DNA from: an uncultured Cytophagia bacterium | Lineage (GTDB): Bacteria > Zhuqueibacterota > Zhuqueibacteria > Residuimicrobiales > Oceaniaggregativiventaceae | DNA length: 32,000 bases | Reading direction: 5' to 3' | Assembly: GCA_964413725.1 (NCBI GenBank) | Contig: CAYPUH010000012.1 | Coordinates: forward strand, 1,389 to 33,388 | Shown here: piece by piece, positions 13,863 to 29,889 of the stretch | How the letters are laid out: the number at the start of each line of letters is the position of its first letter | Position numbering within the stretch: position 1 is the first letter of the stretch | Notes under the pieces: model-generated | Told to the model about the DNA's origin: nothing | The model's database searches: none | The model's input: only the letters and a program-made list of their open reading frames with translations | Made by a program: the position numbers and the translations under genes

Positions 13863-16529
13863 TTATTTTTGCTGTTTTTTAAATTCCAACCGGTAGAGAT
13901 GATTCCAAGGTAGCTCCAGGTCATCGGGCAGGAGCTCACCAGTGCCATCCAGGGAATAGCCGGCCCCGATCAGGCGGTCGAGGGTGAGTCGGACGGTGCC
14001 GGCAGCGGTGTCGGGATTGGGTGTCTGGATCCACAAGGTCCCCGCCATACCAGAGTCATCGATGTCGAGTTTGATGGACGCCGGGCCAAAAAAGGTTGGC
14101 AGCGACAGGACAGAGAGTCGTGCACCGGCACGTAGCCAGCTTTTCGGCAGGCCTGCCAGCAGATGAAGATCGGTGTCGCGTTCCAGCAGCAGCATGTTAC
14201 GCGTGACGCGCACCATCTGGATATTTCCCACAATGTGCGGGATATCTCCGGTCACACGGGTTCCCTCCCCTTTGGGAGACTGTTCCTCCCCATAGAGAAG
14301 CGTTGGTGTCGCGTGATTGGCAACGGCATAGAGCAATTCCTCCGCCTTGTCGGCGTTGCCTCGCCAGAGGCAGGCTAGGGCGCGATGACCGTCAAAGATG
14401 GGCCATACGCCGTCATCGAGCCAGCCGACGCTGTGCGTCAGTCCCTGGACTGTATGCCGATCCAGCAAATTCAGGGTTCCGTCGATCAGCGATTCTGTGG
14501 GAGAAAAAAGTTGACCCACATAGAGCGCATGTAACATGGCCCACTGCCCACGTTGTGGCACATCGGTTGCCGGATCATAGTCCATCTTTATCGGCAGGAA
14601 CCAGTTTCCGTATTCATCGCGTCGCTTGTCGCGCTCAACGGCACGCCGAAAGGATATGATAAAGTCTTGATATTCGTTCTTCCAGGCCTCGGCTTCGGGT
14701 CGTCGCATCACCTGGGCGGTCTGAACCGCCTCACCCAGCGCGATAAGGCTCCAGATGACGCTTCCATATGAGGTACCGATGCCGGCGATACCGCCGTCGG
14801 TCAGCCCGGCGGGCATAAGTCCATAGTTGAGTGCCGCGGGATCGGCAAGGGTTTGTTGCCGGAGCTCGATGACGTATTGAACCGCGCGTTCCAGTTGGGA
14901 CCAGTGCCTGTCGAGCCAGGCCCAGTCCTGAAACAGGCGGGCATAGCGGCACATGCTATAGATCAGATGGCCGGTTTCCCGATGCAGCAGGGCGGGTTTC
15001 ATCACGCCGGCCCGGCCATCGGGATCTTGATATTCCAGCATAGCCTGTATGGTTTGTCTGGCGGCCTCTTTATCGTCCAGCCAGGTGGCGACATCGAGCC
15101 CCCAGCCGGCATCACCGTACCAGAGTCCGCGATAGAGGGTTGGCCCGGGTTGAAATTGATAATGACCATCCACGTTTTCCCGGACTTGATACAGGGTGCG
15201 GATTCCCCCGTCGATCAGAGCCTGGATGCCCGCGTCCGGAACGGTCAACCGGTCCCAGGGCAGGGAGACGTGTTGCCAGTAGTCTATGGCCCGGTTTTGT
15301 TCATCATCCAGGTCAGGGAACGTGACCGGCCCCTCCGCAACACCATGGGTCACCAGAACATCGACCTGTCTGCAGGTGTCGGCAAAGGACAGCACCCAGT
15401 CGCTTTCCATCCGCTTGGCCTGTGTAAACGCGGGTCGGGTGGTGAGAAAGGGGGCATCATCAAAGAGCAGGGTTGCTGTGGCCGTATCGACGGTCAGGGG
15501 GCGCAGGGTATTGAGCCGCAACTGAAGGGTTCCTTCGGAACCGCTTATCTCGGTACGAAGCATATCCCGGCGCACCAGACCGGCATCGAGGAGCTCCATG
15601 CCGGCATCGATATGCCTTTCCGCGTTGGGTGTCGCGGCACCACTGATGACCTGGTTTTTTGTGACGACCTTTTCTGGCTGAAACAACCAGATGCCACAGA
15701 GGAGTACGTTGGGATCCTGACCGCGTGGCGAGGCGGTCACTTCCACAGATAGCCACCCGTCATCATCTATATCCTGACCCGCAAAAAAGAAGACCTGGGG
15801 AACATCCTGTCCGCCTGCCTCGATCAGGTCGACGGTCTGTTTTTCAGCACCTTCTACCAGCAGATCCATCAGCCGGACGATCTGGCCGTGGCGATAGACC
15901 TCGATAAAGCCGAGGGCCACTTTGCGTCTGGAGCCGGCCGGCACCTGCACATCGTAGCGGATGGATCGTCCCGTTCCCCAGGCCACGCTTTGAAACGCCG
16001 GGTCCCGATCCGGATGCGATTCCACCCAGGCGGGTGAGCCTGTCAGGCCCTCGTAACGCCGAAAAGAACTGTCGGGTGACATCGCTCCGGGCAGCCGTAT
16101 GGTGTCCGGTATCATGGCAAATGCTGACTGGCGCCAGCGGAGATCGTTTTCGCTGTGCTCTGTCAGGATCACCGGAATGCGAGGATCCAGGAGAGTCTGT
16201 GAAGTGCTGGCATCGGTCGCTTCTTTCACCTCCACTGCCACGGTGGTTTTGGGACGGGCATAGGGTCCGGGACCAAAGTCGTACACCAGGCGTCCCTCGT
16301 CATCCACCAGGGATTTCTGCCAGTCGTCTACCAGACAGATGGGCGTGGCCCAGCGGGCGGGTGGATACTCGTGCGTGACGGAATAATCCGCACGGATCGG
16401 ATCAGATCCCAACAACAGTACCCCCACGGTTATTATGATTATGGCCCTGGTGATACCGCTCCTGGAATCCTGAATAGCTGCTGATGGTGTTGTAAAAAAT
16501 GATCTCGCAAATCGTGATATCGGCAACAT
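13863..16529 (-). CDS. Secreted or anchored 888-aa protein, possibly an (alpha/alpha)6 six-hairpin glycosidase-like fold
   Basis: GGAG lies 4 nt upstream of the ATG at 16527-16529. An N-terminal hydrophobic segment (AIIIITVGVLLLGS) is present. The C-terminal half has the motifs GLWYGDAGWGLD, LEYQDPDGRAGV, GLMPAGLTDGGIAG and GWLDDGVWPIFDGH, reminiscent of six-hairpin glycosidases. The functional call is by eye only. Confidence 0.5.
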   Translation of the reverse strand: MLPISRFARSFFTTPSAAIQDSRSGITRAIIIITVGVLLLGSDPIRADYSVTHEYPPARWATPICLVDDWQKSLVDDEGRLVYDFGPGPYARPKTTVAVEVKEATDASTSQTLLDPRIPVILTEHSENDLRWRQSAFAMIPDTIRLPGAMSPDSSFRRYEGLTGSPAWVESHPDRDPAFQSVAWGTGRSIRYDVQVPAGSRRKVALGFIEVYRHGQIVRLMDLLVEGAEKQTVDLIEAGGQDVPQVFFFAGQDIDDDGWLSVEVTASPRGQDPNVLLCGIWLFQPEKVVTKNQVISGAATPNAERHIDAGMELLDAGLVRRDMLRTEISGSEGTLQLRLNTLRPLTVDTATATLLFDDAPFLTTRPAFTQAKRMESDWVLSFADTCRQVDVLVTHGVAEGPVTFPDLDDEQNRAIDYWQHVSLPWDRLTVPDAGIQALIDGGIRTLYQVRENVDGHYQFQPGPTLYRGLWYGDAGWGLDVATWLDDKEAARQTIQAMLEYQDPDGRAGVMKPALLHRETGHLIYSMCRYARLFQDWAWLDRHWSQLERAVQYVIELRQQTLADPAALNYGLMPAGLTDGGIAGIGTSYGSVIWSLIALGEAVQTAQVMRRPEAEAWKNEYQDFIISFRRAVERDKRRDEYGNWFLPIKMDYDPATDVPQRGQWAMLHALYVGQLFSPTESLIDGTLNLLDRHTVQGLTHSVGWLDDGVWPIFDGHRALACLWRGNADKAEELLYAVANHATPTLLYGEEQSPKGEGTRVTGDIPHIVGNIQMVRVTRNMLLLERDTDLHLLAGLPKSWLRAGARLSVLSLPTFFGPASIKLDIDDSGMAGTLWIQTPNPDTAAGTVRLTLDRLIGAGYSLDGTGELLPDDLELPWNHLYRLEFKKQQK

Positions 16530-16999
16530 GATACTCCTTTTTGAGGGTACAATGGAAATGGTTTTTAGAGTATAGTCAAAATATCAAAAAAAACCAAAAA
16601 AAAGAAAATCTATGTAGATCTACCGACATGGAAAGAGGTGACCCGGTCTGGTTTTGGTGTTTATGCGTGGTCTGAGCAGGTTCGATCCGGTTCGCGCTCT
16701 GGACAGAATGATAAATCGGATGAACCGATCGTGTCTTGGCGTTTTATGTAAATGTCGTCTAAATAGTGTGACAGGATTTTGGACGATCATAATATTCCAT
16801 AGATGATAATCCGTGGCGACCGGATTGATTTGTGTCCCACCCCTACTATAGAGAATATCAAGTGTGAGAGTACCTTCTTGATCCCGTTCCAAAGCCGAAA
16901 AAAAAATTATTGTCAGCAGGAATTGAAGCCTGATTTCACGTACGATTCACTCCGGCTGTATTTGCATTTAGAACGTCATGAGAGAAGACGAATGTGGCT

Positions 17000-18064
17000 T
17001 CAGTGCGTACCACCGTCGTTCAGGTCTGTGTGTTGTAACTGATCGAGTGGTTGCATATCGAGTGTCATCATGGTATCGATAACGCTGGCGCTCTGTGCCA
17101 TATGGTCAAAGACCCGAGCGTAATGTGTCCGGTCGCCAAACTCGAGCAGGGAATCCATTTGTCCAGCCAGCGTTTCCAGTCGGGGCAGATCCGGCGGTTT
17201 CCCGGCTTGCCGACAACAGGCAACATAGAGTGATGCCAGGGTATTGAAAAGCATCTTGTCCTGAACGAGAGTGACAGTGATAAAGCGATCGATTTCAGAA
17301 TAGGATGAATCTGATAACATGGCCTGGCAGGCGTCGAGTCGTTGATGATCCTGGATGCCTCCCAGTTCGTCTTGGTCGATGAGCCGGACCGTTCGTGCAT
17401 AGAACCACAGGGCATCGATAAGGTGACGTTGTGCTGCTGCCGTCAGGAGCATCGTAGTTGCGGATTCAGTATGAGCGTTTATCCGGTCGAATTCGACTTT
17501 GAGTGTTTTCAAATGTCGGGATCGTTCCAGCAATGCTCGTGGTATCTGTAGCGTATCTGCATCGGTATCGGTATGGATCTGAATCCCCGCAGGTAAGTCT
17601 TGCCGATGCAGTGAGATCCAGTCATCGGGCCGGGAGTCGGTCGCCAGTGTCATAATGATGGGCACATAGGTCGACGAGACCATCAGGCGTGCGGCTGCCA
17701 CATAGCCGGTGGCCAGAGCTGTAAAAGCCGGATTCCGATCCGGATCCATGCTGTTTATGATATCGAGAACCTGGTTATAGGTGTCGACGACGGCTTCATC
17801 CCGGTGCTGTTGTGAGGTGGTGGTGATGAGCGTTTTCAGGGTCTGATAGCGCGTCCGCATATAGGGCTGAATCCATTCCTTGCGATCATTTTTGGCCTTA
17901 TCCTCTCTGACGTATAGTCCGAGACCGATACTGGCACCGATCACGGCTATTCCCACCACTGCGATAATCCATCGCTCCCGTACGGAAAAATCCTCGCAAA
18001 TTCGTTTCTTGAGCCGCTTCCAGTTCGGAAACGGATCTGAGATGTTGGGATCGTCGGAAGGCAT
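17000..18064 (-). CDS. Hypothetical single-pass membrane protein (354 aa), largely helical; possible fifth gene of the TIR/SLOG/RyR cluster
   Basis: ATG at 18062-18064 with GAGGTGG just upstream. There is one TM segment (WIIAVVGIAVIGASIGLGLYV) after a short basic N-terminus. I recognise no motif. It is co-directional with, and 156 nt downstream of, the RyR membrane protein gene. Confidence 0.6.
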   Translation of the reverse strand: MPSDDPNISDPFPNWKRLKKRICEDFSVRERWIIAVVGIAVIGASIGLGLYVREDKAKNDRKEWIQPYMRTRYQTLKTLITTTSQQHRDEAVVDTYNQVLDIINSMDPDRNPAFTALATGYVAAARLMVSSTYVPIIMTLATDSRPDDWISLHRQDLPAGIQIHTDTDADTLQIPRALLERSRHLKTLKVEFDRINAHTESATTMLLTAAAQRHLIDALWFYARTVRLIDQDELGGIQDHQRLDACQAMLSDSSYSEIDRFITVTLVQDKMLFNTLASLYVACCRQAGKPPDLPRLETLAGQMDSLLEFGDRTHYARVFDHMAQSASVIDTMMTLDMQPLDQLQHTDLNDGGTH

Positions 18065-18220
18065 ACCACCTCGTCTGGTTTTCGGGACGTCCTGTATGGG
18101 TATCCCGTGTGATCGTCAAGACTCTGGATCTACAGAATGAATTTTGAATGGATCTTGGATGAATCGATCGAATCCCGCCGGACAGCGCCAAAAGGCGGTC
18201 GTGTCCCTGGAGGCAAAGTA

Positions 18221-19993
18221 TTATTTCGTATGAGTATTATAGAGTATCCGTTTACCCACCTCTGCCAGAATGACCGGGATATCGCGGATCGCATTGCGGT
18301 CATAGTTTCTGGTATCCTCATCCAGATCTGACCAGGGAACCAGGTTGGGATGAAGTTTATAGGCATCGTCACGTTCTCCGTATTCCCAGCCATGGATCCA
18401 TTTTTCCGCATTCCAGCGGTTGTGTTCAGCTTTTGCCAGAGACTCGATCATCGCCGCACCAAGATGTCGTTCCATTTCGTCCCCGTCAGGTTCGGGATCG
18501 CCTGTGGTGCGGTCGATGATTTCCGCTCCGGCACAACGCAGCTTTACCTTCAGGTGATCGGCCTGGCTTCGGTTACTCGCCTTATACTCTTCCGGCAAAA
18601 TCGACCAGGGTACGGCTGCCGGTTTGAGCGGGATTCCTTTCTCTTTGAGTTTTTTGAGCTCTCCCTCCAGATAGCGGGCGTGGATATGCCTGGCCATGTG
18701 ATCGAGTTCTTCATCGATCACGTACAGAGGCGAAGCGGATTCTCTTTCGGGGTCGAGGAAGAACAGACGGTTCCGGTCCTCCCGCATTGTTTTATTCGGG
18801 ATAAAACCCGAGTTGCAGGACGCGATGATCCTGAACGGTGTTTCGGTCTTGATCAGCTGCAGCCAGGAGATCAGAGAAAAGAGAACCGTGTCGTTATCGA
18901 CAAAGAGATAGACAACGTCATAACGGTTCCGCACCAGCCGGTCTGATAATTCCGGTTTGGTGAGGCTCTCCAACTCTCTGTCGATCCACTCGATTTCGAG
19001 GAGATTCTGAATGTGATGAGTCCGCCCGATATACTTTTGAAAGCCATTCGAGCGGTTGCTATCGATCACTGTGACACGGGCTTTTTCTGTGTTGATATAC
19101 TGTCCCAGCAAGGCATGCTGGGTCAGAAATGACCGGGCGAGAGTGTTGAATCCGAGGATGAGGATGCCGGGGGGTGGGGTCGTATTTTGGGTGACCGGTT
19201 TAAAGACATCCGGTGCGACTTTTTTATACAGCAGCCGGGCGCTGTTCTCGTAGGGGTTGAACACGCGGGCATCAAAATTGTCGGTGTTTTGGATAAAAAC
19301 CTCGTGGTGCTGGAGCTCCCGTTTGAGAGCCGGATCCGTGATCATGGCATAGGCGGTGAGGAAACGACTTTGTTTATGGTCCTCCTTGATGTGGAACAGC
19401 CCTTTGATGATCGACACATTGATAAAATCGTTGTCGGTTACGGCAAAGATATAGCGAGCGTGCTCGGCTTTAATCTGTCTAAAGACATCGGCGTCTGTGG
19501 GATTGTGTTTCAGAAACAGGACTTTCGAGGTTTTGAGTGAGGTGATCCAGGCGTTACCCGGATGTTCCGTGACGACCAGGATTTTGTTGTGCTGTCCTCC
19601 GGAAGGCGTTTTCATGTGGACACGGCTAAAGTTATCGATCATGGGGGCCAGAGAGTCATTATACCCCAAAAAGACAATGTGGTCACGCAGACGGATCATT
19701 CTGATGCGATAGAGATCGTCCGCGACAAAGGAGAGCGCAGTCTTGATGGCGGTCGTGGCCAGCAACAGAGGGGATAACCAGCGCGCAACATTGAGTAGAG
19801 AGAAAAACGCGACATCGTCCTCAACGGCTCCGGATTCGAGGATGAACAACTGGATCGAGAGATAGAGCGATTTGAGAACATCCCCGGCACCGGCATCGGT
19901 ACGATAAAAACCGATGGTTCCGGCCACGGTCAGGAGTACCGCACAGGCGCCGAGGAGATACCATTCGTAGCGTTTGATAACCTGGTTGAACAT
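18221..19993 (-). CDS. Membrane protein: 2-TM pore-loop-like N-terminus + two degenerate TrkA_N/RCK Rossmann domains + C-terminal bipartite RyR-repeat module
   Basis: 590 aa. TM1 is WYLLGACAVLLTVAGTIGFY. A P-loop-like stretch follows (SLYLSIQLFILESGAVEDD), then TM2 (FFSLLNVARWLSPLLLATTAI). The RCK-like blocks are HIVFLGYNDSLAPMI...VLFLKHNPTDADVFRQIKAEHARYIFAVTDNDFINVSII and GILILGFNTLARSFL. The C-terminus (SLAKAEHNRWNAEKWIHGWEYGERDDAYKLHPNLVPWSDLDEDTRNYDRNAIRDIPVIL) closely matches the RyR-domain consensus. A second RyR-like repeat (MARHIHARYLEG...VPWSILPEEYKASNRSQADHLKVKL) precedes it. Confidence 0.8.
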   Translation of the reverse strand: MFNQVIKRYEWYLLGACAVLLTVAGTIGFYRTDAGAGDVLKSLYLSIQLFILESGAVEDDVAFFSLLNVARWLSPLLLATTAIKTALSFVADDLYRIRMIRLRDHIVFLGYNDSLAPMIDNFSRVHMKTPSGGQHNKILVVTEHPGNAWITSLKTSKVLFLKHNPTDADVFRQIKAEHARYIFAVTDNDFINVSIIKGLFHIKEDHKQSRFLTAYAMITDPALKRELQHHEVFIQNTDNFDARVFNPYENSARLLYKKVAPDVFKPVTQNTTPPPGILILGFNTLARSFLTQHALLGQYINTEKARVTVIDSNRSNGFQKYIGRTHHIQNLLEIEWIDRELESLTKPELSDRLVRNRYDVVYLFVDNDTVLFSLISWLQLIKTETPFRIIASCNSGFIPNKTMREDRNRLFFLDPERESASPLYVIDEELDHMARHIHARYLEGELKKLKEKGIPLKPAAVPWSILPEEYKASNRSQADHLKVKLRCAGAEIIDRTTGDPEPDGDEMERHLGAAMIESLAKAEHNRWNAEKWIHGWEYGERDDAYKLHPNLVPWSDLDEDTRNYDRNAIRDIPVILAEVGKRILYNTHTK

Positions 19994-20095
19994 GGGATTC
20001 CCGCTTTTTCATTACCAGGGGTCATCAGACCCAAATATTTTTAATATCTTTGGATGGATCGATGCATGCATTATTCATATTTTGACATGCCGGGA

Positions 20096-22372
20096 TCAGG
20101 CATCGAAAAATTGAATAGATCGAAGACAATTGCCGTCAAGAGCTCGGGTGATATAACCGGACCGGAATCGCAGATCAAATTTCACCAGCCCGCACACGCG
20201 AATATGCTGTTGATCGGTGGGGGGCGCTGACATATAGAGAGATCGGCTCTGACCATCCTTCATCACAAGATCGATTCTTCTCCAGATACACTCGCGCTTG
20301 ACATGATGTTTGTCGAGCCTGCTAAACCGGATGGTTTGATCATCGATGGTGATTTCTGTAACGTCTCGAAGATCGATTCGGATTTTTTGCGGTTCAATTC
20401 CCGGATCTTCCGGAGCCCCCTCGAGTGCCGTGAGTGCCAGTGATTTGATTCCTTTAAATTCGATTTTCTTGCCGGTGTGATACACAAACTCGCCTTTAAG
20501 CGCATTCCAGTCCACAGAGTCTGCAAAGGGAACAGCCCGGGTCTGTAACCGAACCGAGTCCACGCTTTCCACCGGCACGGCTCGCATTCTGCCATCTACG
20601 GCAATATTGATCGATGAAACCTGTTCACCACAGCCCGCTCCCCGGGATACCGCCAGGAGCACATCATGACGTGTATCATCGATGAGGCTGACCGCTACCT
20701 GCCTCCAGACACACTGAACGGGTCTGTTCTCTTTGTGTGCGGAAAAATAGATGGTTTTTGTTGCCTCGATTGTTTCTCCAAATACCAGGGACTTTATATA
20801 TTGCAGATTGATCCTGATTTTGGTGGGACGGATCTGATCATCATCGGAGGGTTCTTCAGTAAAATCCAGATGGTCGCCGCTCATGTCGGTATGTCTGGCG
20901 ATTTGGGTGAAGGTGGTTTTCTCTCCGTTTATGAGCGTCAGTTCGCCCGGAATGTGGTTGTCATAGTTGCTTTTGGGTTGATAGAATGTACGCCATTCAC
21001 CGGCATCGACAGGATGGCTTCCGGACTTTACAGTGGGTCTCTCAACATTCTGCGGGCTGTTCTTTTTTTCCAGCTCTTGAATCAATTTGTCCAGAGCTTG
21101 TTTTTTGCCCCGCACACTTTGTGTGACGAGTTTTCTGATCCGGTACAATTCTTCCCGGCCGTTTAATTTTTTTACCGCCGCAATCGCCGAACCGTAAAAA
21201 GAGTCCTCGTCGATATCTTCCAATAGATCGAGAATACGGCTGAGGGTTTTCTCACGTTTCGAATCGCCGGTGTACTCCAGTAGGGTCTCTATGATTTTGC
21301 TGTTTGTTGTCCCCCTACTCTCATCCAACAAATCATAGAGATAATTCCATTTTTCAGAATCGGAGAGTGTCGAGATACGAACAGCATCCAGTCCGGGACC
21401 CTGGGTGCTAAAACTCGCTTTGATAGAATATTTGAGAGCCTCGAGTATGGGGTGGGGGTTTTTCTCGCCCTCCGGAGTCGTCAGGCTATAGAACAAGAGT
21501 TTTGCAAGTTTAACCGTCTCACAATGGCCCTTGTGAGTCGACAATCTGAACCGCTCATCGCTGCTCAACCGGCAAAACAAGTCGATCTCTTTTCCCTGCC
21601 ATTTTGAATGAATTTCTCGCCAGATTTGCTTTGAATTTTTGTCCTCAATTCCTCCTACACCAAATGTCTGCAGCTCTATTTTTGAAATGGCGTCAAGAAT
21701 ATATTGTTTGACCTCCTTTTGTGAGACCTGTGGATCCAAAGAGTCATTTTTTGGGGGATTTACTTTAGTTGATTCTGGCTGAGACTCCTGACCCGGGGAT
21801 AGAGTCTGCTGCTTTTTATGTGTAGGCTCCGGAGGTTGGGCACTCGGCCCAGCAGGAGATGTATCTGCGGTTTCAGCGGCATATTTTATTCTTTCGAGAG
21901 TTCTCTCCACAGACTGGAGGATATTCTCCCGTGCACCGAGAAAGTTTTTTCGAGAGTCCGTATAATCGACCAGTGGTGTGACATCACCGGGAATGATTTG
22001 CATCCTGACCAGCCATGAAGCCGGATGGTGGGGTGGAACCGACCAGGGTTCGACCAGGATGGGGACGATCTCGAGGGTTTCACGGCTTTTCTCCTGGATT
22101 CTGGGCAACTCTTTGGTTATGATAAACTCGGAATTGAGGAAATCCCGACTCAATAAAAGAATGGCAATATCCGCCCGATCGATTTCGGCGGCAATTTTCC
22201 GTTCGTATTCGATGCCCGGCAGGGTTTTCAGATCGTGATCGTACCAGACCTTTACGCCCTGCCAGCGAAGGCTGTCCTCCAGAAACGGTATGATCTGAAA
22301 CGGATCGTTTCTATCCACCCAGGAGGAATTTTTATGCGCGTAACTCACGAAAATATTGATTTGTCGATCCAT
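20096..22372 (-). CDS. TIR-domain protein (ThsB-like candidate NADase/signal synthase) with a helical middle region and tandemly duplicated C-terminal domain
   Basis: 758 aa. GAGG lies 5 nt upstream of the ATG at 22370-22372. The N-terminus reads INIFVSYAHKNSSW...GVKVWYDHDLKTLPGIEYERKIAAEIDRADIAILLLSRDFLNSEFIITKELPRI. This matches the TIR_2 pattern (FxSYxxxD/N, w.D, pG, the hhhhS block, then the conserved Glu). A low-complexity P/Q/S linker spans aa 165-220. Two homologous ~140-aa C-terminal repeats follow. Confidence 0.88.
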   Translation of the reverse strand: MDRQINIFVSYAHKNSSWVDRNDPFQIIPFLEDSLRWQGVKVWYDHDLKTLPGIEYERKIAAEIDRADIAILLLSRDFLNSEFIITKELPRIQEKSRETLEIVPILVEPWSVPPHHPASWLVRMQIIPGDVTPLVDYTDSRKNFLGARENILQSVERTLERIKYAAETADTSPAGPSAQPPEPTHKKQQTLSPGQESQPESTKVNPPKNDSLDPQVSQKEVKQYILDAISKIELQTFGVGGIEDKNSKQIWREIHSKWQGKEIDLFCRLSSDERFRLSTHKGHCETVKLAKLLFYSLTTPEGEKNPHPILEALKYSIKASFSTQGPGLDAVRISTLSDSEKWNYLYDLLDESRGTTNSKIIETLLEYTGDSKREKTLSRILDLLEDIDEDSFYGSAIAAVKKLNGREELYRIRKLVTQSVRGKKQALDKLIQELEKKNSPQNVERPTVKSGSHPVDAGEWRTFYQPKSNYDNHIPGELTLINGEKTTFTQIARHTDMSGDHLDFTEEPSDDDQIRPTKIRINLQYIKSLVFGETIEATKTIYFSAHKENRPVQCVWRQVAVSLIDDTRHDVLLAVSRGAGCGEQVSSINIAVDGRMRAVPVESVDSVRLQTRAVPFADSVDWNALKGEFVYHTGKKIEFKGIKSLALTALEGAPEDPGIEPQKIRIDLRDVTEITIDDQTIRFSRLDKHHVKRECIWRRIDLVMKDGQSRSLYMSAPPTDQQHIRVCGLVKFDLRFRSGYITRALDGNCLRSIQFFDA

Positions 22373-22540
22373 ATCACCCTCAATCCTGCCACCCGGATTC
22401 TATGTCAACAGAATTTAATGAAAACGATTTTCCCGAGACGATAGTGCTTAAGGATATGAATTGCCTGTTCAAAAGCGTTACGATATCCCGTTGCATTTTA
22501 AAAGGATCCGGTACCTTGCACCGAACCCGGGTATCGGTTC

Positions 22541-23497
22541 CTAATAGCCATGGAGAAATGCGTTGATGGCATTTTCGTCATTATCGAGAACGATCAGGTT
22601 ATCGTGCTCTCTCCACTCGTGGTCCAGACTCAACGCATCCGCTGCCCGGCCACTGCCGGCGACGACACCCACTCGTGCTCCCAGGGCCAGTGCCAGCCGG
22701 TATTCAAAGGCGGCGATTGTACCGCCATTGATCCCCAGGAGGTGCACCTGTGTCGGCCTGACACCTTGCGCGAGGAGATCGGTCCAGATCTGCAAGGGCT
22801 CCAGATTGGAAAACGTGGACCCTGTGGTATACACCAACCGATCGTAGCGAGGATCAGTTCGAGTGGTGTCCGGGACGTGTTGTGGCAGATAGCCGAACAG
22901 ATGGAACTCTGGAGCAGAGTTGTTGTTGCGAAGGGAGACGGTTGCCTGTCCCACCAGGCCGGGGATGCCGGAGAGGGTTCCTCCGGAGATCACTGTCCCT
23001 GTGCAGTGTTTGAAAACATGGTTCAAGAGTTCGAGATTCTGTGCCTCTTGGGTGTCCGGCATCTGTTCGGCACCCCCTGCGATGATCGTGACGGGTTGGG
23101 AAAAGTGCTCTGTATGAAGAGCGCGATCTTGAAGATATCGGATGGTCTCATCACCGAAATGAACGACTTGTGCCAACATTAAAAGAGTGTCGACACGAGA
23201 GAGAATCGGGGACAGAACAGGATCATCGCCATTCAGCCCGACCAGTCTGTCCCGTTCGAGCTCAACATCTTTGACAGAAAGACGTGTCTGACCTGAAATC
23301 AAAAGATTCACTGCCTTGAGATAGGTGTGTTCGCTCTCCTCCGGCGATTGCTGCAATAACCATCGGCCCAGATTCAGATAGTCTCGGGCCGAACTCCCGT
23401 TCAGACAAGTCTGATTGCGACACGCCGGCATGTCATGATGTTGAGCATTGGCGACGGATTCTTTATTCTGTTTTTGGTTGTCTGCGTTGGGTTTCAC
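22541..23497 (-). CDS. SLOG/LOG-like Rossmannoid protein (candidate nucleotide-signal sensor or processor) with an N-terminal helical extension
   Basis: 318 aa. Three Gly-rich loops occur in LOG/SLOG order: PVTIIAGGAE, GTVISGGTLSGIPGLVGQA and HLLGINGGTIAAFEYRLALALGARVGVVAGSGRAAD. The last is comparable to the LOG PGGxGTxxE motif. The track start is a GTG at 23497, overlapping the upstream gene by 35 nt. The first ATG is at 23429-23431. Confidence 0.65.
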   Translation of the reverse strand: MKPNADNQKQNKESVANAQHHDMPACRNQTCLNGSSARDYLNLGRWLLQQSPEESEHTYLKAVNLLISGQTRLSVKDVELERDRLVGLNGDDPVLSPILSRVDTLLMLAQVVHFGDETIRYLQDRALHTEHFSQPVTIIAGGAEQMPDTQEAQNLELLNHVFKHCTGTVISGGTLSGIPGLVGQATVSLRNNNSAPEFHLFGYLPQHVPDTTRTDPRYDRLVYTTGSTFSNLEPLQIWTDLLAQGVRPTQVHLLGINGGTIAAFEYRLALALGARVGVVAGSGRAADALSLDHEWREHDNLIVLDNDENAINAFLHGY

Positions 23498-26153
23498 GAC
23501 TCGATCCGCTCTGTTCTACAATCACATAACCCGCCAGTGCCAACATGTCGGGATATTTTTTAATGGTGTCGCGATCTTTGTCCTGTTCACCGGAAGACAG
23601 GTCTGAATACATTACCATCGATGGGTGGTGTTTGCGATAATCATTGCGGATCTCTGCAGGTGTCCAGCCCTGGTTTCTTCTGAATTTCATCCAGCCCTCG
23701 TGTTCCTTTTCTGCCAGGACTTCCAGTTGGGATGTGCCGGTGTCCGCATTTTTTTGTTTTAGAAAGGTTGGAAAATTGATCACGGTTTCCGAGGTCAGCT
23801 CAGTTTTGTGGCGGAGTTCCAGTCCCACCGCATTTAGGTTGGTTTGAATACGCCTGGCCGCTTCGATGTTGTCCAATTTGGCATCCATGGGCAGCAAATT
23901 AAAGGCGCGGTCATAGGCATCGGGTTTGATACGGCTGCCGAGCCATGATGCATGAATCCTGGGTGCGAGAATGTCGGCAATCCGATCCTGTTCGCTTTTG
24001 CTGTCGACCACCATAAGCGTTTTAAAATCATCCAGGGGCACACACAGGGACAGCACTGGAGTGGAAGGCAAGCTGGATTGGATGATCCCACCGGGTACGT
24101 CTGATTTGAGATAGGAGAGCAATTTGCTCATGGACCGTGACCCGTTGAGATAATCTGGAATGGAAATCAGGGCATTGAGCACACCCCAATCAATGTGCAG
24201 GGCTTTATTCCCGGTGAGTCTGAGCAATCCACGAATAAACAGAGCTCTTCGGACCGGAAAGCTATAATCTTCCTCGTCTTTTTCCCAGCACCGGGATTCA
24301 AGATTATAAAGCAATCTCGGATTGGGGCCCAGAACATTCAGATATCCATGCAGTCGGCTTTTAAAATCTGGTCCTTTTTTAAAGACAAAATCGTTAAACT
24401 CTTTCAGTTCCCGCTCATGTTTGGTGATCTCTGCGTCGGTTGGGGAAGCGACAAGGGTGGGTTCTTTCGGCCCGAATTGCTCCAATGTATAGCTGGTGGC
24501 ACCGGCAAAGAAAAAGATGCACTTGCCAATGGGGTGGGTCATCTGACCTTCCTGGAACTGTCCGTCCTGCATAGGTGCGAGCAGGTATTGCAGCCATCGG
24601 TATTCCTGGGCATCAAACTCGTCCCAGAACACAAAAGGAGTGTTCCCTCTTAGGGCGGAATCGCGTACCTGATGGAACGCGCCGATCAGATCGTTCGGAT
24701 CGGAAAACTGGGACAAATTAAAGACGAGATAATCAAAGGATTTACCGTTTATGCCCTCTTTTGCCAGTTGTTTGACTGCAAACGATTTTCCGGCACCCGG
24801 AGGACCAAAGATCGCGATAGAAAGGGGTTGCTCCGCATCGCCCTCGCGTACATAGTCAAAGACAAGGTTGCGGATATTTCGCAGGTTTTCAATCTCGGTT
24901 CGATCGACGGTGACATAGTTTTTGATTTTTAATGACGGAACATTAAAGAGTTCCGTTTCTCCATGCTGGACAATGCGCCGGGCCAATACTGCCAGAGGTG
25001 TACGGTTGTGAAGAAAGCCATAGTTGTTTTCGAGCAGCGTCCAGGATTCTATTCTGTGTTCAAAATCCTGATGATCGGGATTGGGGACAAATGATCTGGG
25101 GATGTCTTCCTGCTGTGTAGCGAGTGTTTGGGCTATTGTTTCAGCGGGAAAGGCAGGGGGGTGGGAGCCCTTTTGCAGATGACCGGTGTCCACCAACTGT
25201 TGGTTGGCCCGAATTCCCGTGATGACAGCCTTTTCAAAGTGAGAAACCCGTTTGTCGTGATGTTCAAGGCAGTCTAGGTCGCTGGTCAATCCATAGACAA
25301 AGCCGGCTGTAAATGTGAGTTGATTGCCAATGACGGTTTTGCCTTGACTTTGTGCCCGCTCTCCTTCCATATAGAGTGCGTCAAAAAAGAGGCGGTACTG
25401 GGTAGCGTCCCGTTCGTTTGAGTCGTGAATACAAAAGGTACCTTCCTGACCGATGGTGACGATGATATGGCGGCAGAGTCGACGCAGGTGTTGAAATGGA
25501 CCGTTTGAACGCAGTGCGTAGGCAAGATCGCCGGCAGTGCGTTCCCAGGAGAGCCCTTTGCTGATCATCGCATTTTCGCGCCGCAAATCATTGATAGAAA
25601 TGACAAGGATCAATCTGTTGGTGTTGAGGCGGGTGACTGTATCCCACAACGCGCCGGTACCCAGGGGGCGAGCCATCTTGAGCACCACCCAGGGAGATGG
25701 ATCGGTGGATTCCAGCAACGCGGTTGGCCAGGCCGGTTTGGATGTTTCATTGCGGAATCCCAGATATCCATCGTCGAGAACGACGACGTTTGCCCGGTCA
25801 GGTGCCGTTTCGATCTTGAGAGCGGAATAGTCACACCGGTTGTAGCAGGCATCATTGTATCCCAGCAGGGTTTTGACATGCCAGTGTATGCCATCGTCAT
25901 CGACAGAGGATCTTTGCCATTCGGCGTAGGCTTGTTGTTGAATGGACCGGCGCAAACGGGTGTTCAGACCATAGGATACGGACCGTCCGGATTGCTTCAG
26001 GATAGTGTGGAGCAGCCGTGACCCACCTACAGAGTCTTCGATTCGGGTACCGCTTTTTACTCTGGAACTGGTCTGTTGCCGCTTGCCTTTGTAAATGTTG
26101 TTGTCGATAACCACATCGCCGGTGACATGGATATGGGGAGGGGACGACATCAT
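23463..26153 (-). CDS. Multidomain ATPase: ribokinase/pfkB-like N-domain (degenerate) + classical AAA+ core + C-terminal bipartite RyR-repeat module
   Basis: 896 aa. The Walker A is SIAIFGPPGAGKSFAVKQLAKE, the Walker B is PFVFWDEFDA, and the sensor-1 region is CIFFFAGATS. The C-terminus (LEVLAEKEHEGWMKFRRNQGWTPAEIRNDYRKHHPSMVMYSDLSSGEQDKDRDTIKKYPDML) is an RyR domain, preceded by an RyR-like repeat (ILAPRIHASWLGS...FNLLPMDAKLDNIEAARRIQTNL). The N-terminal ~320 aa show the pfkB motif order: HVTGDVVIDNN, SVGGSRLLHTILKQSG, VVVLDDGYLG, LILVISINDLRRE, IIVTIGQEGTFCI, and VIGNQLTFTAGFVYGL in place of the GAGD block. Confidence 0.8.
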   Translation of the reverse strand: MMSSPPHIHVTGDVVIDNNIYKGKRQQTSSRVKSGTRIEDSVGGSRLLHTILKQSGRSVSYGLNTRLRRSIQQQAYAEWQRSSVDDDGIHWHVKTLLGYNDACYNRCDYSALKIETAPDRANVVVLDDGYLGFRNETSKPAWPTALLESTDPSPWVVLKMARPLGTGALWDTVTRLNTNRLILVISINDLRRENAMISKGLSWERTAGDLAYALRSNGPFQHLRRLCRHIIVTIGQEGTFCIHDSNERDATQYRLFFDALYMEGERAQSQGKTVIGNQLTFTAGFVYGLTSDLDCLEHHDKRVSHFEKAVITGIRANQQLVDTGHLQKGSHPPAFPAETIAQTLATQQEDIPRSFVPNPDHQDFEHRIESWTLLENNYGFLHNRTPLAVLARRIVQHGETELFNVPSLKIKNYVTVDRTEIENLRNIRNLVFDYVREGDAEQPLSIAIFGPPGAGKSFAVKQLAKEGINGKSFDYLVFNLSQFSDPNDLIGAFHQVRDSALRGNTPFVFWDEFDAQEYRWLQYLLAPMQDGQFQEGQMTHPIGKCIFFFAGATSYTLEQFGPKEPTLVASPTDAEITKHERELKEFNDFVFKKGPDFKSRLHGYLNVLGPNPRLLYNLESRCWEKDEEDYSFPVRRALFIRGLLRLTGNKALHIDWGVLNALISIPDYLNGSRSMSKLLSYLKSDVPGGIIQSSLPSTPVLSLCVPLDDFKTLMVVDSKSEQDRIADILAPRIHASWLGSRIKPDAYDRAFNLLPMDAKLDNIEAARRIQTNLNAVGLELRHKTELTSETVINFPTFLKQKNADTGTSQLEVLAEKEHEGWMKFRRNQGWTPAEIRNDYRKHHPSMVMYSDLSSGEQDKDRDTIKKYPDMLALAGYVIVEQSGSSRETQRRQPKTE

Positions 26154-26330
26154 GGGGGTCCTTTCGTCATCATATGTTTTTTTATCGGACAGGAGTGAAA
26201 ACAGGGTGGAGCAGGATCCCGACTCTGCCCGACCCGAAAAATATACGAGAATGAGGAGTTAAACACAACAGGATTGTGGTTTTCCTGACATGTTCAGCAA
26301 TGACAATACGGATTGCACGGTATGACAGGT

Positions 26331-27527
26331 TCACTCATTATGATGTTGTCTGCGTTCGAGCATGGTTTTGATGCCATCCAGGGGAAGCGCGGCGCTGGCC
26401 AGATAGTTGGGCAACCGGTGCTCTTTGCCAAAGATCCATTCACATGCTCCGTGCTGCTGAAAATGATGCACCATGTCGATAACGGTCTGATCGGCCAGAT
26501 CTGAATCCACCAAATCCAGGGTATAGACGAACCATCCCGTGGGTGTGGCCCAGTAGGCGCCGTTCTGGTACTCATCGCGGGTCCAGGCCTTTTCCCAGTA
26601 GACACCTCCTGGCAGATGGCGAATCTGGCCGTGTCGAACGATTTCCCCATAGTGATTTTTGAAATAGGTTGCGATGGTCTGCGATTGCACCGTATCGGCC
26701 ACGCCCAGATAGACCGCAAAGGCCGAACCCCAAATGTCGTGTTCTTTGCAGAGCGCGGTTGCAGCCCGGAACAATCCCGTCTGCGGATCCCAAAATACCT
26801 CCCGAATGCGATCGGCAACCCGGCCGCCTTTTTGTCGCCAGTGGTGGGCATCGCTGTCGCGTCCATCCCGTTGTAACAAATCCGACAGTTGCCGGCAAGC
26901 TTGAACAAACAGCAATGAACTGAACAGCACATCACCCTGTTTGCTCACCGTATCGGTAAAGCCATAGGGACACCGGTCCCGTTCCGGACCGGGTACGATA
27001 TGTATCAGGCCGGTTTCGGCGTTTCTGGGCGCGGCGTTCATTGCCCGGATCAGGGCGGGCAGGATTTCCCCGAGTACGTCCTCATCTCCGGTTTTTTGGA
27101 TGGTATGCCACGCCATATCCACGGTAAATTGCGATCCGTCGGCGGTCGGGTGTTTACCCATTTTGCCGAAATTGGGTTTGTAAATGGGAGTGCCGTCGAA
27201 TGTCACACAATCCACTCCGGCGCCGTCGGAGCGAATGCTGCGGACGAACAGCCGGCAGGCGTCAATCAATTCACGGTCGGAATAGGACTCGATAGAGCCT
27301 TCCAGGGTATAGGCATAGTCGCGCAGCCAGAACGCTTCATAGCCCAATCCCACTTGTGGCGGAAAGGCCGCCGTGCTGTCGTTCATGGTCCGTCGGGAGG
27401 CCCGGATCAGACGGTTCGCTTCAGTTTTAAGCCAGGTGACGGCGTCTGAAAGTGCAAGTACGGATTCGTTTTGAGGTCTGGTAGTCATAGCACTTGTAAA
27501 AAGAGTACCCAATATCAGGACAAGCAT
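26331..27527 (-). CDS. Secreted six-hairpin (alpha/alpha)6 glycoside-hydrolase-like protein
   Basis: 398 aa. The N-terminus is signal-like (MLVLILGTLFTSAM). The motifs EAFWLRDYAY, CPYGFTDTV and EYQNGAYWATPTGWFVYTL resemble GH63/GDE/trehalase-clan toroid enzymes. The family is not resolved by eye. Confidence 0.55.
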   Translation of the reverse strand: MLVLILGTLFTSAMTTRPQNESVLALSDAVTWLKTEANRLIRASRRTMNDSTAAFPPQVGLGYEAFWLRDYAYTLEGSIESYSDRELIDACRLFVRSIRSDGAGVDCVTFDGTPIYKPNFGKMGKHPTADGSQFTVDMAWHTIQKTGDEDVLGEILPALIRAMNAAPRNAETGLIHIVPGPERDRCPYGFTDTVSKQGDVLFSSLLFVQACRQLSDLLQRDGRDSDAHHWRQKGGRVADRIREVFWDPQTGLFRAATALCKEHDIWGSAFAVYLGVADTVQSQTIATYFKNHYGEIVRHGQIRHLPGGVYWEKAWTRDEYQNGAYWATPTGWFVYTLDLVDSDLADQTVIDMVHHFQQHGACEWIFGKEHRLPNYLASAALPLDGIKTMLERRQHHNE

Positions 27528-28157
27528 CAGGTGTCGTTGTATGGTGGACTCTCGGTTTTCCCTTTCGATTTGCGTGTTTGATGGTCATCAAGGGGTTTTG
27601 AGTCACATTCGTCCCGAGTCGATTTGTATCACATTACATGTTTACAATAGCTGGTTTCCATGGGAATTGCAAGGGAAAAGAGGAAAACAACCGGAGATAT
27701 TGTGCTTCCGGATCATTACGACGCATGAGTGACAGCAATTGATACCTGTGGTACCCGCTTCTGTGCCGCTCCGGCTCTGGCGTTCGCCTATATATTGAAG
27801 GATAGGAGTTTTTTCAATGTCCTGCACACGTTGTGGCCCATTCTTGTTTAAAAGTGAACGCCAGGATCCTGCGCGGGCTGCGCGCACTCTCCCGCGGCAT
27901 CCGTTGGAAGATGTGCGCTCTGGTCTCTATAAGCAGGTGATGTATCCATAGCCTTTCCGGCAGGCGGGAGGATCGCGCTCCGCAAGAGTTGTTCATGTTT
28001 CCGGACAACAGGTGTGTCAATCAGGTGTCGGCAGTCAATTGTAACTTTGGCGAGCCACACCACGCCCTCACGTGTCACCGTTTTTATCCCGGATTCAATG
28101 TGTATGTATCCCGATTTGATCAACGCTTTCAAACAGGGTGTGGGGATGGTGAACCTT

Positions 28158-28736: not shown

Positions 28737-29194
28737 CTTGTACCTCCTCCATGCTCTGTTTGATACAATATGTCTTGTGAAATGAAATGAGACCGGTGAA
28801 GAGGTTTGTTTTCGTATCAAAGGACTATGATACACCATAAAGTTTCAAGACAGCCTTCAACACCGGCGTTGACAGATCCAGACGATAGACTCGATGTCGA
28901 TCGGTACGTCCTCAACGGTTTACCTGCCCGATTGTCACCGGCATCTTTGGTTACATCATCGGGACATGGAGACCGCGTCGTAATAGTTGTGATACAGCAA
29001 GTGCGAAGGCTTTTATTCCATCGGCAGGTCGATTAGAGGGCGTGAGACGTTCTCTGTCGTATTTTTCGTACCCCCGGACAGATGCCGTCGCGGTGTTTGA
29101 CCTTGTTTGGGTATATTGGCTACCGGTGATTTTTCATCCATTTTTTATTTCAGTAATTAATGATGGACAGGTTCAAGGGCTGTTAAGGATGGCA

Positions 29195-29875: not shown

Positions 29876-29889
29876 AGACGTGTCCGACA

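Follow-up and report, generated by a model that had tools for sequence, protein, structure and literature searches.

A central question raised by this locus is why two proteins of a single gene cluster should end in the same ryanodine receptor (RyR) module, and what that module might sense. The locus lies within a window of 32,000 nucleotides (contig CAYPUH010000012.1, assembly GCA_964413725.1) from an uncultured Cytophagia bacterium. It comprises five genes – all co-directional, on the minus strand – in the order A-B-C-D(-E):

Gene A, 23463..26153 (-): 896 aa; ribokinase/PfkB-like N-domain, AAA+ ATPase and tandem RyR (R12-type) module.
Gene B, 22541..23497 (-): 318 aa; stand-alone SLOG protein (LSDAT_prok).
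Gene C, 20096..22372 (-): 758 aa; TIR domain at the N-terminus and a locus-specific C-terminal region.
Gene D, 18221..19993 (-): 590 aa; 2-TM pore-like region, two RCK/TrkA_N-like Rossmann domains and tandem RyR module.
Gene E, 17000..18064 (-): 354 aa; one predicted TM helix, N-terminal.

As the initial annotation had it, a TIR gene sits between the two RyR proteins: C, together with the SLOG gene B (Pfam PF18171, E=5e-11, residues 135-294), separates A from D. The start of gene B overlaps the end of gene A by 35 nt. Promoter and terminator scans across the cluster gave matches no commoner than in shuffled sequence, so the operon boundaries are drawn from gene spacing only. NCBIfam holds no model for any of the five proteins. 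Gene E has no known domain in Pfam, PADLOC or NCBIfam and no homologue in related loci, and it is uncertain whether it belongs to the system.

Evidence that the two ends are indeed the same module came from one BLASTP alignment of 163 columns, which runs through both repeats at 29% identity (E=2e-14). The module makes up the last ~160 residues of each protein – the initial annotation had placed it at residues 722-880 of A and 426-585 of D – and all four peptide stretches quoted there are present in the translations of the two minus-strand ORFs. Outside the C-terminal modules the best match between A and D has E=2.1, and the description of the two proteins as otherwise unrelated therefore stands. 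Repeat 2 is a canonical RyR repeat, recognized by Pfam PF02026 at residues 810-878 of A (46.6 bits, E=4e-12) and 514-580 of D (53.7 bits, E=2.5e-14), against a gathering cut-off of 27.4 bits. The pattern proposed for repeat 1 (H, LP, K, N, A, L) likewise falls on columns that are invariant or at least 90% conserved (H21, L49, K54, N57, A61 and L68 when 30 modules of the A and D types are aligned together). Where the earlier description needs amendment is in its division of the module into two different parts: both repeats are real, but the first is no separate element. Profiles of the two repeats are homologous (hhalign probability 98%, E=9e-14), and Pfam itself reports a second RyR stretch in the C-terminus of D. 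Repeat 1 is a divergent RyR repeat, and the bipartite module is thus a tandem-repeat RyR domain of the Repeat12 type.

The predicted structure points the same way. An AF2 model of D residues 418-590 (pLDDT 91.8) matches the whole of human RyR3 Repeat12 in Foldseek searches (E=2.8e-8, ~190 columns, TM 0.63-0.67), the matched structures including ATP-, ADP-, AMP-PCP- and dantrolene-bound forms; it also matches phage RyR-domain proteins. The A module should adopt the same tandem fold, to judge from its 163-column alignment with D. The model suggests a complete Repeat12-type domain in which the two repeats of one chain are predicted to pair. Single-repeat RyR proteins form homodimers through helices 1 and 4, and the predicted pairing within the chain would be the same one.

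A critical issue is whether the module retains a ligand pocket, and here the individual repeats differ:

A repeat 1, 23802..23975 (-): aa 727-784; shortened RyR repeat, H734 and N762 conserved.
A repeat 2, 23514..23732 (-): aa 808-880; canonical RyR repeat; H818, W821, R836, H843, K859, D860.
D repeat 1, 18515..18703 (-): aa 431-493; full-length, divergent RyR repeat; H438, Y441, N474.
D repeat 2, 18245..18451 (-): aa 515-583; canonical RyR repeat; H524, W527, R541, H548, D565.

In A as in D, repeat 2 has the pocket residues (His-x-x-Trp, a loop His and Lys-Asp), and its pocket appears intact: helix 1 contributes His and Trp, the loop Arg/Lys and His, and helix 3 Lys-Asp. Among 90 A-type modules the second repeat keeps the His in all 90, the Trp in 85, His(+25) in 70, the Lys in 68 and the Asp in 87. 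The 71 D-type modules have the His throughout, Trp in 58 (Phe in 12) and Asp in 45 (Asn in 24), with the phosphate His in only 24. These differences in D-type repeat 2 mean that pocket chemistry is not the same in A and D, and the two modules may bind different molecules. Repeat 1 keeps only the His and an aromatic residue of the pocket. Asn replaces the Asp in 88 of 90 A-type and 67 of 71 D-type modules, as well as in all ten of a further set. Profile comparison with repeat 2 shows that repeat 1 of A has an 11-residue deletion of the loop bearing R/K(+18) and H(+25), while repeat 1 of D is matched by the repeat 1 HMM at E=3e-6. Repeat 1 is accordingly a conserved variant, lacking the phosphate-binding His and carrying Asn for the catalytic Asp.

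A precedent for what such a pocket might bind is provided by two 2026 preprints, which report phage proteins with an RyR domain that either bind the cADPR-type signals of Thoeris or destroy them. RyDEP (PDB 35TM) binds and cleaves 2'/3'cADPR via H75, W78, H100 and D117; of eight homologues from phages, six bind 2'/3'cADPR signals, and most of those that share the RyDEP residues bind without cleaving. RyR Tad binds 3'cADPR (KD 43 nM), 2'cADPR and cADPR through H129/W132, K147/H154 and K170/D171. The ligand residues of both proteins recur in repeat 2 of A at identical spacings (+3, +18, +25, +41, +42). A tblastn search of phage genomes with repeat 2 of D returned five records, phage DyoEdafos not among them, and the mapping of residues to RyDEP is consequently taken from a direct, ungapped phmmer match between A repeat 2 and 35TM, in which a one-residue index offset is attributed to a tag. 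The parallel with cADPR, speculative when the initial annotation drew it, can now appeal to experimental precedent in phage proteins, and by homology to these the cellular A and D modules may bind ligands of this kind.

The likeness to RyDEP and RyR Tad extends over Pfam family, ligand-contact residues with their spacing, and structure. The phage proteins, however, are small single-repeat homodimers that act in counter-defence as sponge or glycosidase, whereas in A and D a fused two-repeat pseudo-dimer, with one repeat systematically altered (Asp to Asn; the A type without its loop), ends cellular proteins of 896 and 590 aa that adjoin a TIR enzyme. Unlike the phage form, the modules are encoded in bacterial and archaeal genome contexts.

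Further insight comes from the distribution of the module. In 160 related loci it is found at the C-terminus of RelA_SpoT-TPR-SLOG, TIR-NACHT-wHTH and DSP-phosphatase proteins, and also alone, in small proteins that are either single repeats of ~95 aa or tandems of 154-186 aa. In the TIR-NACHT-wHTH protein its place is that of the sensor in a STAND NTPase. Both ancient and mobile, the module lies at the C-terminus of many signalling and effector architectures that are otherwise unrelated, much like a sensor domain.

A survey of TIR and SLOG neighbours, proposed in the initial annotation, revealed strong, distance-dependent enrichment beside both A-type and D-type genes. Of the 76 genome loci anchored on A, 47 contain a TIR or DUF4062 protein, as do 33 of the 76 metagenome loci anchored on D (15 of 26 when the loci have at least eight ORFs); SLOG-like genes are present in 32 of the 76 A-anchored loci. 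The share of ORFs that are TIR-like falls from 17% within 2 kb of A to 2% beyond 8 kb, and from 12% to 0% over the same distances from D. The large neighbours, 75 in number, begin with TIR_2 in 36 cases and with DUF4062 in 24. Many of the neighbouring TIR proteins are of the TIR-STAND-repeat type, whose TIR may be an NAD+-depleting effector and not the maker of a signal. At 29 of the 76 A-type loci there is no TIR within 10 kb, and some of these lie among housekeeping genes with a SLOG-like partner only. The SLOG-like designation itself includes a ~195-aa protein that follows A in 27 loci and that we name so tentatively: Pfam scans gave weak matches to the SLOG superfamily (YpsA, DprA, YAcAr; E=0.003-0.06) for three of 20 members, profile-profile comparison with the SLOG protein B gave nothing, and its profile found chance matches only among PDB sequences. 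Domain identities, fold, residue conservation and these gene associations are established here.

The two proteins that carry the module differ greatly in the remainder of their sequence. A, with at least 477 full-length homologues, has two further domains:

A N-domain, 24954..26153 (-): residues 1-400; ribokinase/PfkB fold, AF2 pLDDT 86.
A AAA+ (MoxR-like), 24009..24893 (-): residues ~421-715; Pfam bpMoxR E=7.6e-9, AAA E=8e-5.

By sequence the N-domain matched nothing in Pfam, and its profile matched nothing in the PDB, so that the ribokinase fold came from the predicted structure alone: Foldseek returned 242 PDB matches at E<1e-3 (best E=2.6e-9, TM 0.44-0.57), the best 50 of which are all ribokinase-family sugar or nucleoside kinases. 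The family consensus reads G-x-V-x-G-x-x-S-C-x-T-A-A, with the catalytic DTxGAGD motif not visible there, and the domain is probably a non-catalytic ribokinase/PfkB fold. The AAA+ core, with its invariant Walker A (GPPGAGKS, G450-S457) and Walker B (D511 E512), matches PF20030 (bpMoxR) as do the ATPases of MoxR-vWA-beta-propeller ternary systems. A differs from these in bearing a ribokinase-fold N-domain and an RyR C-domain. Nor are the vWA and propeller partner genes of such systems found: the window contains no vWA partner, no vWA family is among the recurrent neighbour families scanned, and the propeller repeats near A-type genes belong to TIR proteins.

D belongs to a family of 619 representative clusters at E<=1e-30; a word-indexed search recovered only seven relatives. 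The family profile matches residues 12-216 of GsuK (E=7e-15) and 23-204 of MthK (E=4e-11) in an alignment that spans TM1, pore helix, TM2 and RCK, so that both the 2-TM region and the RCK domain are represented. With TrkA_N the window's D scores 23.6 bits, just under the cut-off of 23.8, and the glycine motif of its first Rossmann domain is degenerate; another family member (L042) matches at E=3.5e-19. Pfam ion-channel models found no match in D. The selectivity filter T-x-G-[YF]-G-D is absent, its place taken in the family by L-E-S-G-x-V and in the window's own D by ILESGAV. D therefore resembles MthK and GsuK channels, and TrkA/KtrA gating rings, in its 2-TM pore and its two Rossmann-type RCK domains, but departs from them in lacking the canonical filter and in the R12-type RyR domain appended to it. 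We regard it as a putative channel relative of the 2-TM RCK type without a K+ selectivity filter.

The comparison with animal ryanodine receptors is instructive in this regard. Their Repeat12 (RY1&2) shares with the D module the tandem architecture and the fold (~22% identity over ~190 columns), and in both cases the domain – a nucleotide- and drug-binding one in animals – is joined to an ion-channel or channel-like protein. In the animal receptors, however, Repeat12 is a peripheral cytosolic part of a ~5000-residue 6-TM Ca2+ release channel, whereas D is a 590-residue protein of the 2-TM RCK type with no other RyR/IP3R domains.

The candidate source of a signal is C. Its TIR domain matches Pfam TIR_2 (E=3.6e-11) and the PADLOC model of ThsB (E=5.9e-11), and E88 aligns as the catalytic Glu with PdTIR and plant TIR across the KEL motif. 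The C-terminal region contains an internal duplication of ~140 aa (E=4e-7) and has no homologue in 80 A-anchored genome loci. In having a TIR with catalytic Glu and a ThsB match, the locus resembles Thoeris (types I-XI), in which the signal maker ThsB is paired with a signal-activated effector. The resemblance continues with the operon's SLOG protein B (ThsA senses 3'cADPR through SLOG), and with D as a membrane or channel-like candidate effector, the type X effector being an 'ion channel'. The differences are nonetheless considerable: no described effector (ThsA, ThsC-L) adjoins the TIR gene, and A, B, D and E have no significant PADLOC effector match, the SLOG domain class alone being held in common; two proteins, possibly three, carry sensor-type domains in place of one effector; and the most conserved component is a large ribokinase-fold AAA+ ATPase. 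A 2025 survey of Thoeris predicts 29 effector types, and an RyR domain is mentioned neither in its main text nor in the supplement text searched. Our search of the literature that can be searched found no description of such host systems, though a 2015 comparative-genomics paper on SLOG and TIR may mention RyR-TIR-SLOG neighbourhoods.

Taken as a whole, we think the chances somewhat favour A-B-C-D(-E) being a TIR nucleotide-signalling conflict system of the Thoeris kind, with the shared C-terminal module as its signal receptor. It is probably an undescribed immune system with an RyR domain in that role. Infection would be detected by the TIR protein C, via its variable C-terminal region, and C would turn NAD+ into an ADP-ribose-derived signal. 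The signal would be bound simultaneously by the RyR modules of D and A. D would then open or disrupt the membrane, and A, either activated or shut off, would serve as a second output or as a regulator, while the SLOG protein B would bind or process the same class of nucleotide. What we infer is the identity of the ligand, the direction in which it regulates, the outputs of A, B and D, and a role against phage.

Other functions for the module have to be weighed against that of receptor. Given its presence on two proteins of one locus, the initial annotation offered homotypic docking or the sensing of a common ligand; residues, distribution and gene enrichment have since lent support to sensing, but nothing comparable has accrued to docking. 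Were the A and D modules to bind each other – in the manner of effector-associated or Death-like adaptor domains – the ATPase would be brought to the membrane protein. Single-repeat RyR proteins do homodimerise, and 23 of the 76 loci anchored on A, like 33 of the 76 anchored on D, contain at least two RyR proteins. Yet in the remaining 53 A-type loci the A module is kept with no second RyR protein, and pairs from the same locus are barely more alike than pairs from different loci (mean 71.5 versus 64.1 bits). Nor did the window's A and D modules prove especially alike: at 54 bits the pair ranks 8 of 22 and 52 of 73, no closer mutually than to modules of other loci. These two facts, the absence of closer likeness within a locus and the lack of a second RyR protein at most A loci, argue against homotypic docking. 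Furthermore, A-type and D-type modules form separate old lineages (A-A 76, D-D 100, A-D 64 bits), the dimer interface is predicted to form between the tandem repeats of a single chain, and the conserved residues are those of the pocket. An adaptor function is on this evidence very improbable. The same comparison of same-locus with cross-locus scores rejects recent exchange or homogenisation of the A and D modules within a locus.

More closely allied to sensing is the possibility that the modules degrade or sequester the TIR product, so setting a threshold or ending the signal. Hydrolysis is possible in that the catalytic dyad of RyDEP is kept in A-type repeat 2 (His in all 90 modules, Asp in 87), and the small stand-alone RyR proteins of these loci look like buffers. 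But most phage homologues with the same residues bind signals and do not cleave them; Asn stands for the catalytic Asp nearly always in repeat 1 and in a third of D-type repeat 2; and a domain fused to the C-terminus of proteins as varied as channels, STAND NTPases, phosphatases and RelA/SpoT enzymes has the distribution of a regulatory sensor. We consider a built-in hydrolase or buffer quite unlikely. A module that binds ATP, ADP or AMP, and so reports the depletion of nucleotides or NAD+ by TIR NADases with no dedicated second messenger, would also account for some of the data: animal R12 domains bind ATP and ADP, the best structural matches include RyR3 R12 with ATP, ADP and AMP-PCP, and the pocket may recognise ordinary adenine nucleotides. 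Many neighbours are TIR-STAND-repeat proteins, a kind that often depletes NAD+, and RCK/TrkA_N domains such as those of D commonly bind NAD(H), ATP or ADP. Against this, repeat 2 conserves the equivalents of RyDEP H75 and D117, which hold the terminal ribose of ADPR and would be superfluous for binding plain adenine nucleotides, and the RyR proteins of phages, members of the same Pfam family, bind cADPR isomers specifically and with nanomolar affinity. Sensing of the energy state is in our view unlikely.

If the module is instead the receptor for a TIR-made signal, a broader proposal can be entertained, which we advance tentatively and would put, all parts taken together, at somewhat less than an even chance. 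Cellular Repeat12-type RyR domains would be the primary receptor for TIR-made cADPR-type signals in bacteria and archaea, and several outputs tagged with RyR (channel, AAA+ ATPase, RelA/SpoT enzyme, phosphatase and TIR-NACHT amplifier) would all read one such signal in parallel. D-type proteins would be RyR-gated membrane channels, the prokaryotic counterpart – and possible ancestor – of cADPR-modulated gating in ryanodine receptors, and the RyR sponges and glycosidases of phages would derive from copies captured from the host receptor.

The 2026 phage preprints left open why a 'ryanodine receptor' domain recognises cADPR-type signals. The locus described here, together with its roughly 150 relatives, offers a testable answer from the side of the host: a widespread, TIR-linked family in which tandem RyR modules end candidate effectors. 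If true, TIR immune signalling would gain a new sensor domain and a multi-output architecture, and the phage sponges would have their origin explained. There would also be a tractable bacterial model – a module of 170 residues on a channel-like protein of 590 – for the long dispute over whether, and in what way, cADPR acts on animal R12.

The locus holds five co-directional open reading frames, with spacings of 102-168 nt between B, C, D and E.

Open reading frames of the cluster
23463-26153, minus strand: gene A, 896 aa, an AAA+ ATPase
22541-23497, minus strand: gene B, 318 aa, a SLOG protein; its first 35 nt are shared with the end of gene A
20096-22372, minus strand: gene C, 758 aa, a TIR protein
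18221-19993, minus strand: gene D, 590 aa, a channel-like protein
17000-18064, minus strand: gene E, 354 aa

Pfam assigns to A an AAA+ core (bpMoxR, E=7.6e-9) followed by a RyR domain (residues 810-878), to B a prokaryotic LSDAT SLOG domain (E=5e-11), to C an N-terminal TIR_2 domain (E=3.6e-11), and to D a RyR domain at 514-580 together with a near-threshold TrkA_N match; E gave no Pfam match. PADLOC, applied to A-E, recognised C alone (as ThsB-like, the signal maker of the TIR-based anti-phage Thoeris systems; E=5.9e-11), and NCBIfam holds no model for any of the five. A near-identical counterpart carrying the same cluster is NCBI contig JBUDUK010000030.1 (GCA_054922275.1). When window positions 16345-32000 are set against the contig of locus L001, a few substitutions turn up in the cluster (T698N in A is one of them), and the two sequences part upstream of about position 26297; the window therefore derives from a strain or assembly that is closely related. 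Genes for a NUDIX hydrolase and an MBL-fold protein lie some kb upstream of A and share its strand (29890-30522, minus strand, in the window; further upstream in L001), the Pfam matches of the latter including the anti-Pycsar Apyc1 family. Enzymes of either class can have ADP-ribose or cyclic nucleotides as substrates.

The initial annotation proposed that A and D, otherwise unrelated, end in the same two-part module, and both halves of that statement are borne out: the C-terminal regions form one 163-column alignment across both repeats (29% identity, E=2e-14), and the remaining 715 residues of A and 420 of D share no similarity (best E=2.1). The motif originally ascribed to repeat 1 likewise corresponds to invariant or near-invariant columns (H, L(P), K, N, A, L) in a 30-sequence alignment of A-type and D-type modules, the modules of homologues of A and D. 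Pfam reports a second RyR stretch in D, and there is a weak alignment between D repeat 1 and RyR2 repeat 4. In the A family the profile of repeat 1 aligns end to end with that of repeat 2 (hhalign probability 98%, E=9e-14), with one 11-residue deletion that removes the loop bearing Arg/Lys(+18) and His(+25), counted from the first pocket His; by profile, then, repeat 1 is itself a RyR repeat. Residues 418-590 of D were modelled with AlphaFold2 from 30 aligned sequences, drawn from the window and from database homologues (mean pLDDT 91.8, pTM 0.82); the model finds its best PDB matches in the complete Repeat12 domain of human RyR3 – apo or bound to ATP, ADP, AMP-PCP, dantrolene or azumolene – at E=2.8e-8 to 1e-6, with 186-200 aligned columns and TM 0.6-0.67. 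Next come Repeat12 domains within full-length RyR1, RyR2 and RyR3, and in a viral structure library phage 'RyR domain-containing' proteins rank first. The model supports a single two-repeat domain in D 418-590 which, taken with the homology of the repeats, makes the bipartite module one domain.

Clues to what this domain binds come from two preprints of May-June 2026, which report that phage PF02026 proteins bind cADPR-type Thoeris signals. In RyDEP, captured with 3'cADPR in a post-cleavage complex (PDB 35TM), H75 and D117 engage the terminal ribose, with W78 stacked against adenine and H100 binding the phosphates; 6/8 homologues bind 2'/3'cADPR, mostly without cleavage. RyR Tad binds 3'cADPR with a KD of 43 nM, and 2'cADPR and cADPR too, through H129/W132, K147/H154 and K170/D171. 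Repeat 2 of A carries H818, W821, R836, H843, K859 and D860 at exactly the spacings of these two proteins, and aligns with 35TM over 47 residues without a gap; repeat 2 of D has H524, W527, R541, H548 and D565, with Tyr where Lys is expected. Across non-redundant modules, repeat 2 retains in A-type proteins (n=90) H in 90, W in 85, H(+25) in 70, K in 68 and D in 87, and in D-type proteins (n=71) H in 71, W in 58 (F in 12), H(+25) in 24 and D in 45 (N in 24). Pocket residues thus differ between A-type and D-type modules; the animal Repeat12 domain binds ATP/ADP. That A repeat 2 is a hydrolase would fit its intact His/Asp dyad. Repeat 1 keeps the His and the aromatic, while Asn replaces the Asp in 88/90, 67/71 and 10/10 modules; because this substitution is conserved, it points to a specialised, putatively non-hydrolytic half-site and not to decay.

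Two explanations had been offered for the shared terminus, homotypic docking or sensing of a common ligand, and it is the second that is favoured. A and non-A modules score barely higher within a locus (mean 71.5 bits) than across loci (64.1). The window's own A-D pair reaches 54 bits, which places D 8th among the 22 partners of A, and A 52nd among the 73 of D. Most A homologues, moreover, keep the module with no second RyR protein nearby. In the model both repeats pair within one chain, like two protomers of single-repeat RyR proteins, a pairing predicted to use the surface that the latter dimerise through. We therefore regard docking as improbable; oligomerisation of the whole proteins is possible. 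Scores, missing partners and intrachain pairing together favour sensing of a small nucleotide ligand by the RyR modules. The greater likeness of A-A (76 bits) and D-D (100) pairs over A-D pairs (64) indicates that the two module types are old, vertically inherited lineages.

The proteins to which the modules are attached differ. A 16-sequence profile of the first 420 residues of D matches TrkA, GsuK (query 11-202, E=7e-15) and MthK (query 21-204, E=4e-11), the last two across TM1, pore helix, TM2 and the first RCK domain. The layout is shared, but opposite the GsuK filter TTLGFGD the D family has L-E-S-G-x-V; D is thus a predicted RCK-type 2-TM channel relative without the K+ filter. This architecture is common (619 clusters at 50% identity and E<=1e-30, mostly full length and of 560-620 residues). 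Most family members keep the first Rossmann/RCK GxGxxG; in the window's D (18221-19993, minus strand) residues 100-115 have lost it, FLGYNDS replacing ICGLGxxG. In A, residues 1-405 lack any sequence-level match, and their ribokinase/PfkB fold is detectable solely through structure prediction (24954-26153, minus strand, for residues 1-400; pLDDT 86, a confident model). Foldseek returned 242 matches at E<1e-3 (best E=2.6e-9), the 50 listed all being sugar or nucleoside kinases of the ribokinase family. In the consensus of the A family the N-terminal GG motif is retained and no DTxGAGD catalytic motif is seen; the domain is likely a ligand-binding pseudo-kinase, and could give A a further site for a ribose or nucleotide ligand. 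Both Walker motifs, A (GPPGAGKS) and B (DE), are invariant in the family, which numbers at least 477 full-length matches (the best 120 covering 84-99% of A) and spans many bacterial phyla and archaea.

Neighbourhoods were surveyed by calling ORFs and applying purpose-built HMMs to two sets of 80 loci, one from genomes and anchored on A, the other from metagenomes and anchored on D; counts cover 76 of each, 26 of the D-anchored loci having at least 8 ORFs.

Features of A-anchored and D-anchored loci
TIR or DUF4062-type protein: 47/76 A-anchored; 33/76 D-anchored (15/26 with at least 8 ORFs)
SLOG-like gene: 32/76 A-anchored; 14/76 D-anchored
Second RyR protein: 23/76 A-anchored; 33/76 D-anchored (20/26 with at least 8 ORFs)
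D-type protein: 13/76 A-anchored; anchor in D-anchored
A-type protein: anchor in A-anchored; 16/76 D-anchored

The suggested association of RyR genes with TIR and SLOG genes emerges as enrichment near A and D that fades with distance: the TIR-like share of ORFs around A falls from 17% within 2 kb to 6% at 2-4 kb and 2% past 8 kb, and around D from 12% within 2 kb to 0% past 6 kb, with the same drop for RyR and SLOG-like ORFs. Among 75 large recurrent neighbours, Pfam finds TIR_2 in 36 and DUF4062 in 24, usually followed by a STAND NTPase and TPR, WD40 or Kelch repeats. Directly after A comes either a B-type SLOG gene or, in 27 related loci (L032:7061-7651 and L052:12675-13277 among them), a gene for a protein of ~195 aa marked by GxTGHR...LAEGADR...GGT. 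This protein has no Pfam family of its own and at most weak SLOG-superfamily matches; some forms are fusions with a SLATT membrane domain (L013:12657-14399). In 29/76 A-type loci no TIR lies within 10 kb, a number of them being surrounded by housekeeping genes or having STAND-TPR proteins with no detected TIR. The window's C keeps the catalytic Glu (E88). Its locus-specific C-terminal part (20099-20980, minus strand; residues ~465-758) contains a ~140-aa module twice in tandem (27% identity, E=4e-7), with no Pfam match and no homologue among the 80 A-anchored genome loci, and looks like a fast-evolving sensor region.

The module also ends a DSP-type phosphatase, an uncharacterised protein of 603 aa whose gene lies immediately upstream of D, ~850-aa RelA_SpoT-TPR-LSDAT SLOG proteins (L007:3448-6021, L067:3030-5579, L104:6993-9548), and, in the sensor position of a STAND NTPase, a TIR_2-NACHT-wHTH protein (L054:13545-15986). 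The RelA/SpoT proteins unite two different candidate nucleotide-sensor domains on one enzyme; in the NACHT protein feed-forward amplification is possible, if RyR senses a TIR product. Tandem RyR proteins of 154-186 aa stand alone (L087:334-894, L100:10043-10507), as do single-repeat proteins of ~95 aa (L008:13554-13838, L054:1356-1646, L074:9932-10219, L078:9932-10216); by analogy with phage sponges, these might serve the host as signal buffers or regulators. The RyR module is a mobile C-terminal unit, and its attachment to so many unrelated enzymes and pore-forming proteins matches the distribution of established nucleotide-sensor domains (SLOG, SAVED, CARF and Macro).

In the mechanism we propose, C would sense infection and make an ADPR-derived signal, which the RyR modules of D and A would read; D would then perturb the membrane, the ATPase of A would be regulated, and B would bind or process nucleotide. 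Several points weaken this scheme: the differing pockets of A-type and D-type modules, ATP/ADP binding by the animal Repeat12 domain, the hydrolase-like dyad of A repeat 2, and the A-type loci with no TIR nearby. Many neighbouring TIRs, moreover, are STAND-linked, a type that may deplete NAD+ and not signal. Our literature search, which recovered the phage RyR papers and a 2025 Thoeris survey and did not extend to a 2015 SLOG/TIR comparative-genomics paper, found cellular RyR proteins described as partners of TIR enzymes in none; neither RyR nor PF02026 occurs in the survey's text or in four supplement files, and prior mention of the partnership in the 2015 paper is possible. We rate the cluster as a putative Thoeris-like TIR system, one that has a sensor domain new to such systems and more than one output tagged with a sensor.
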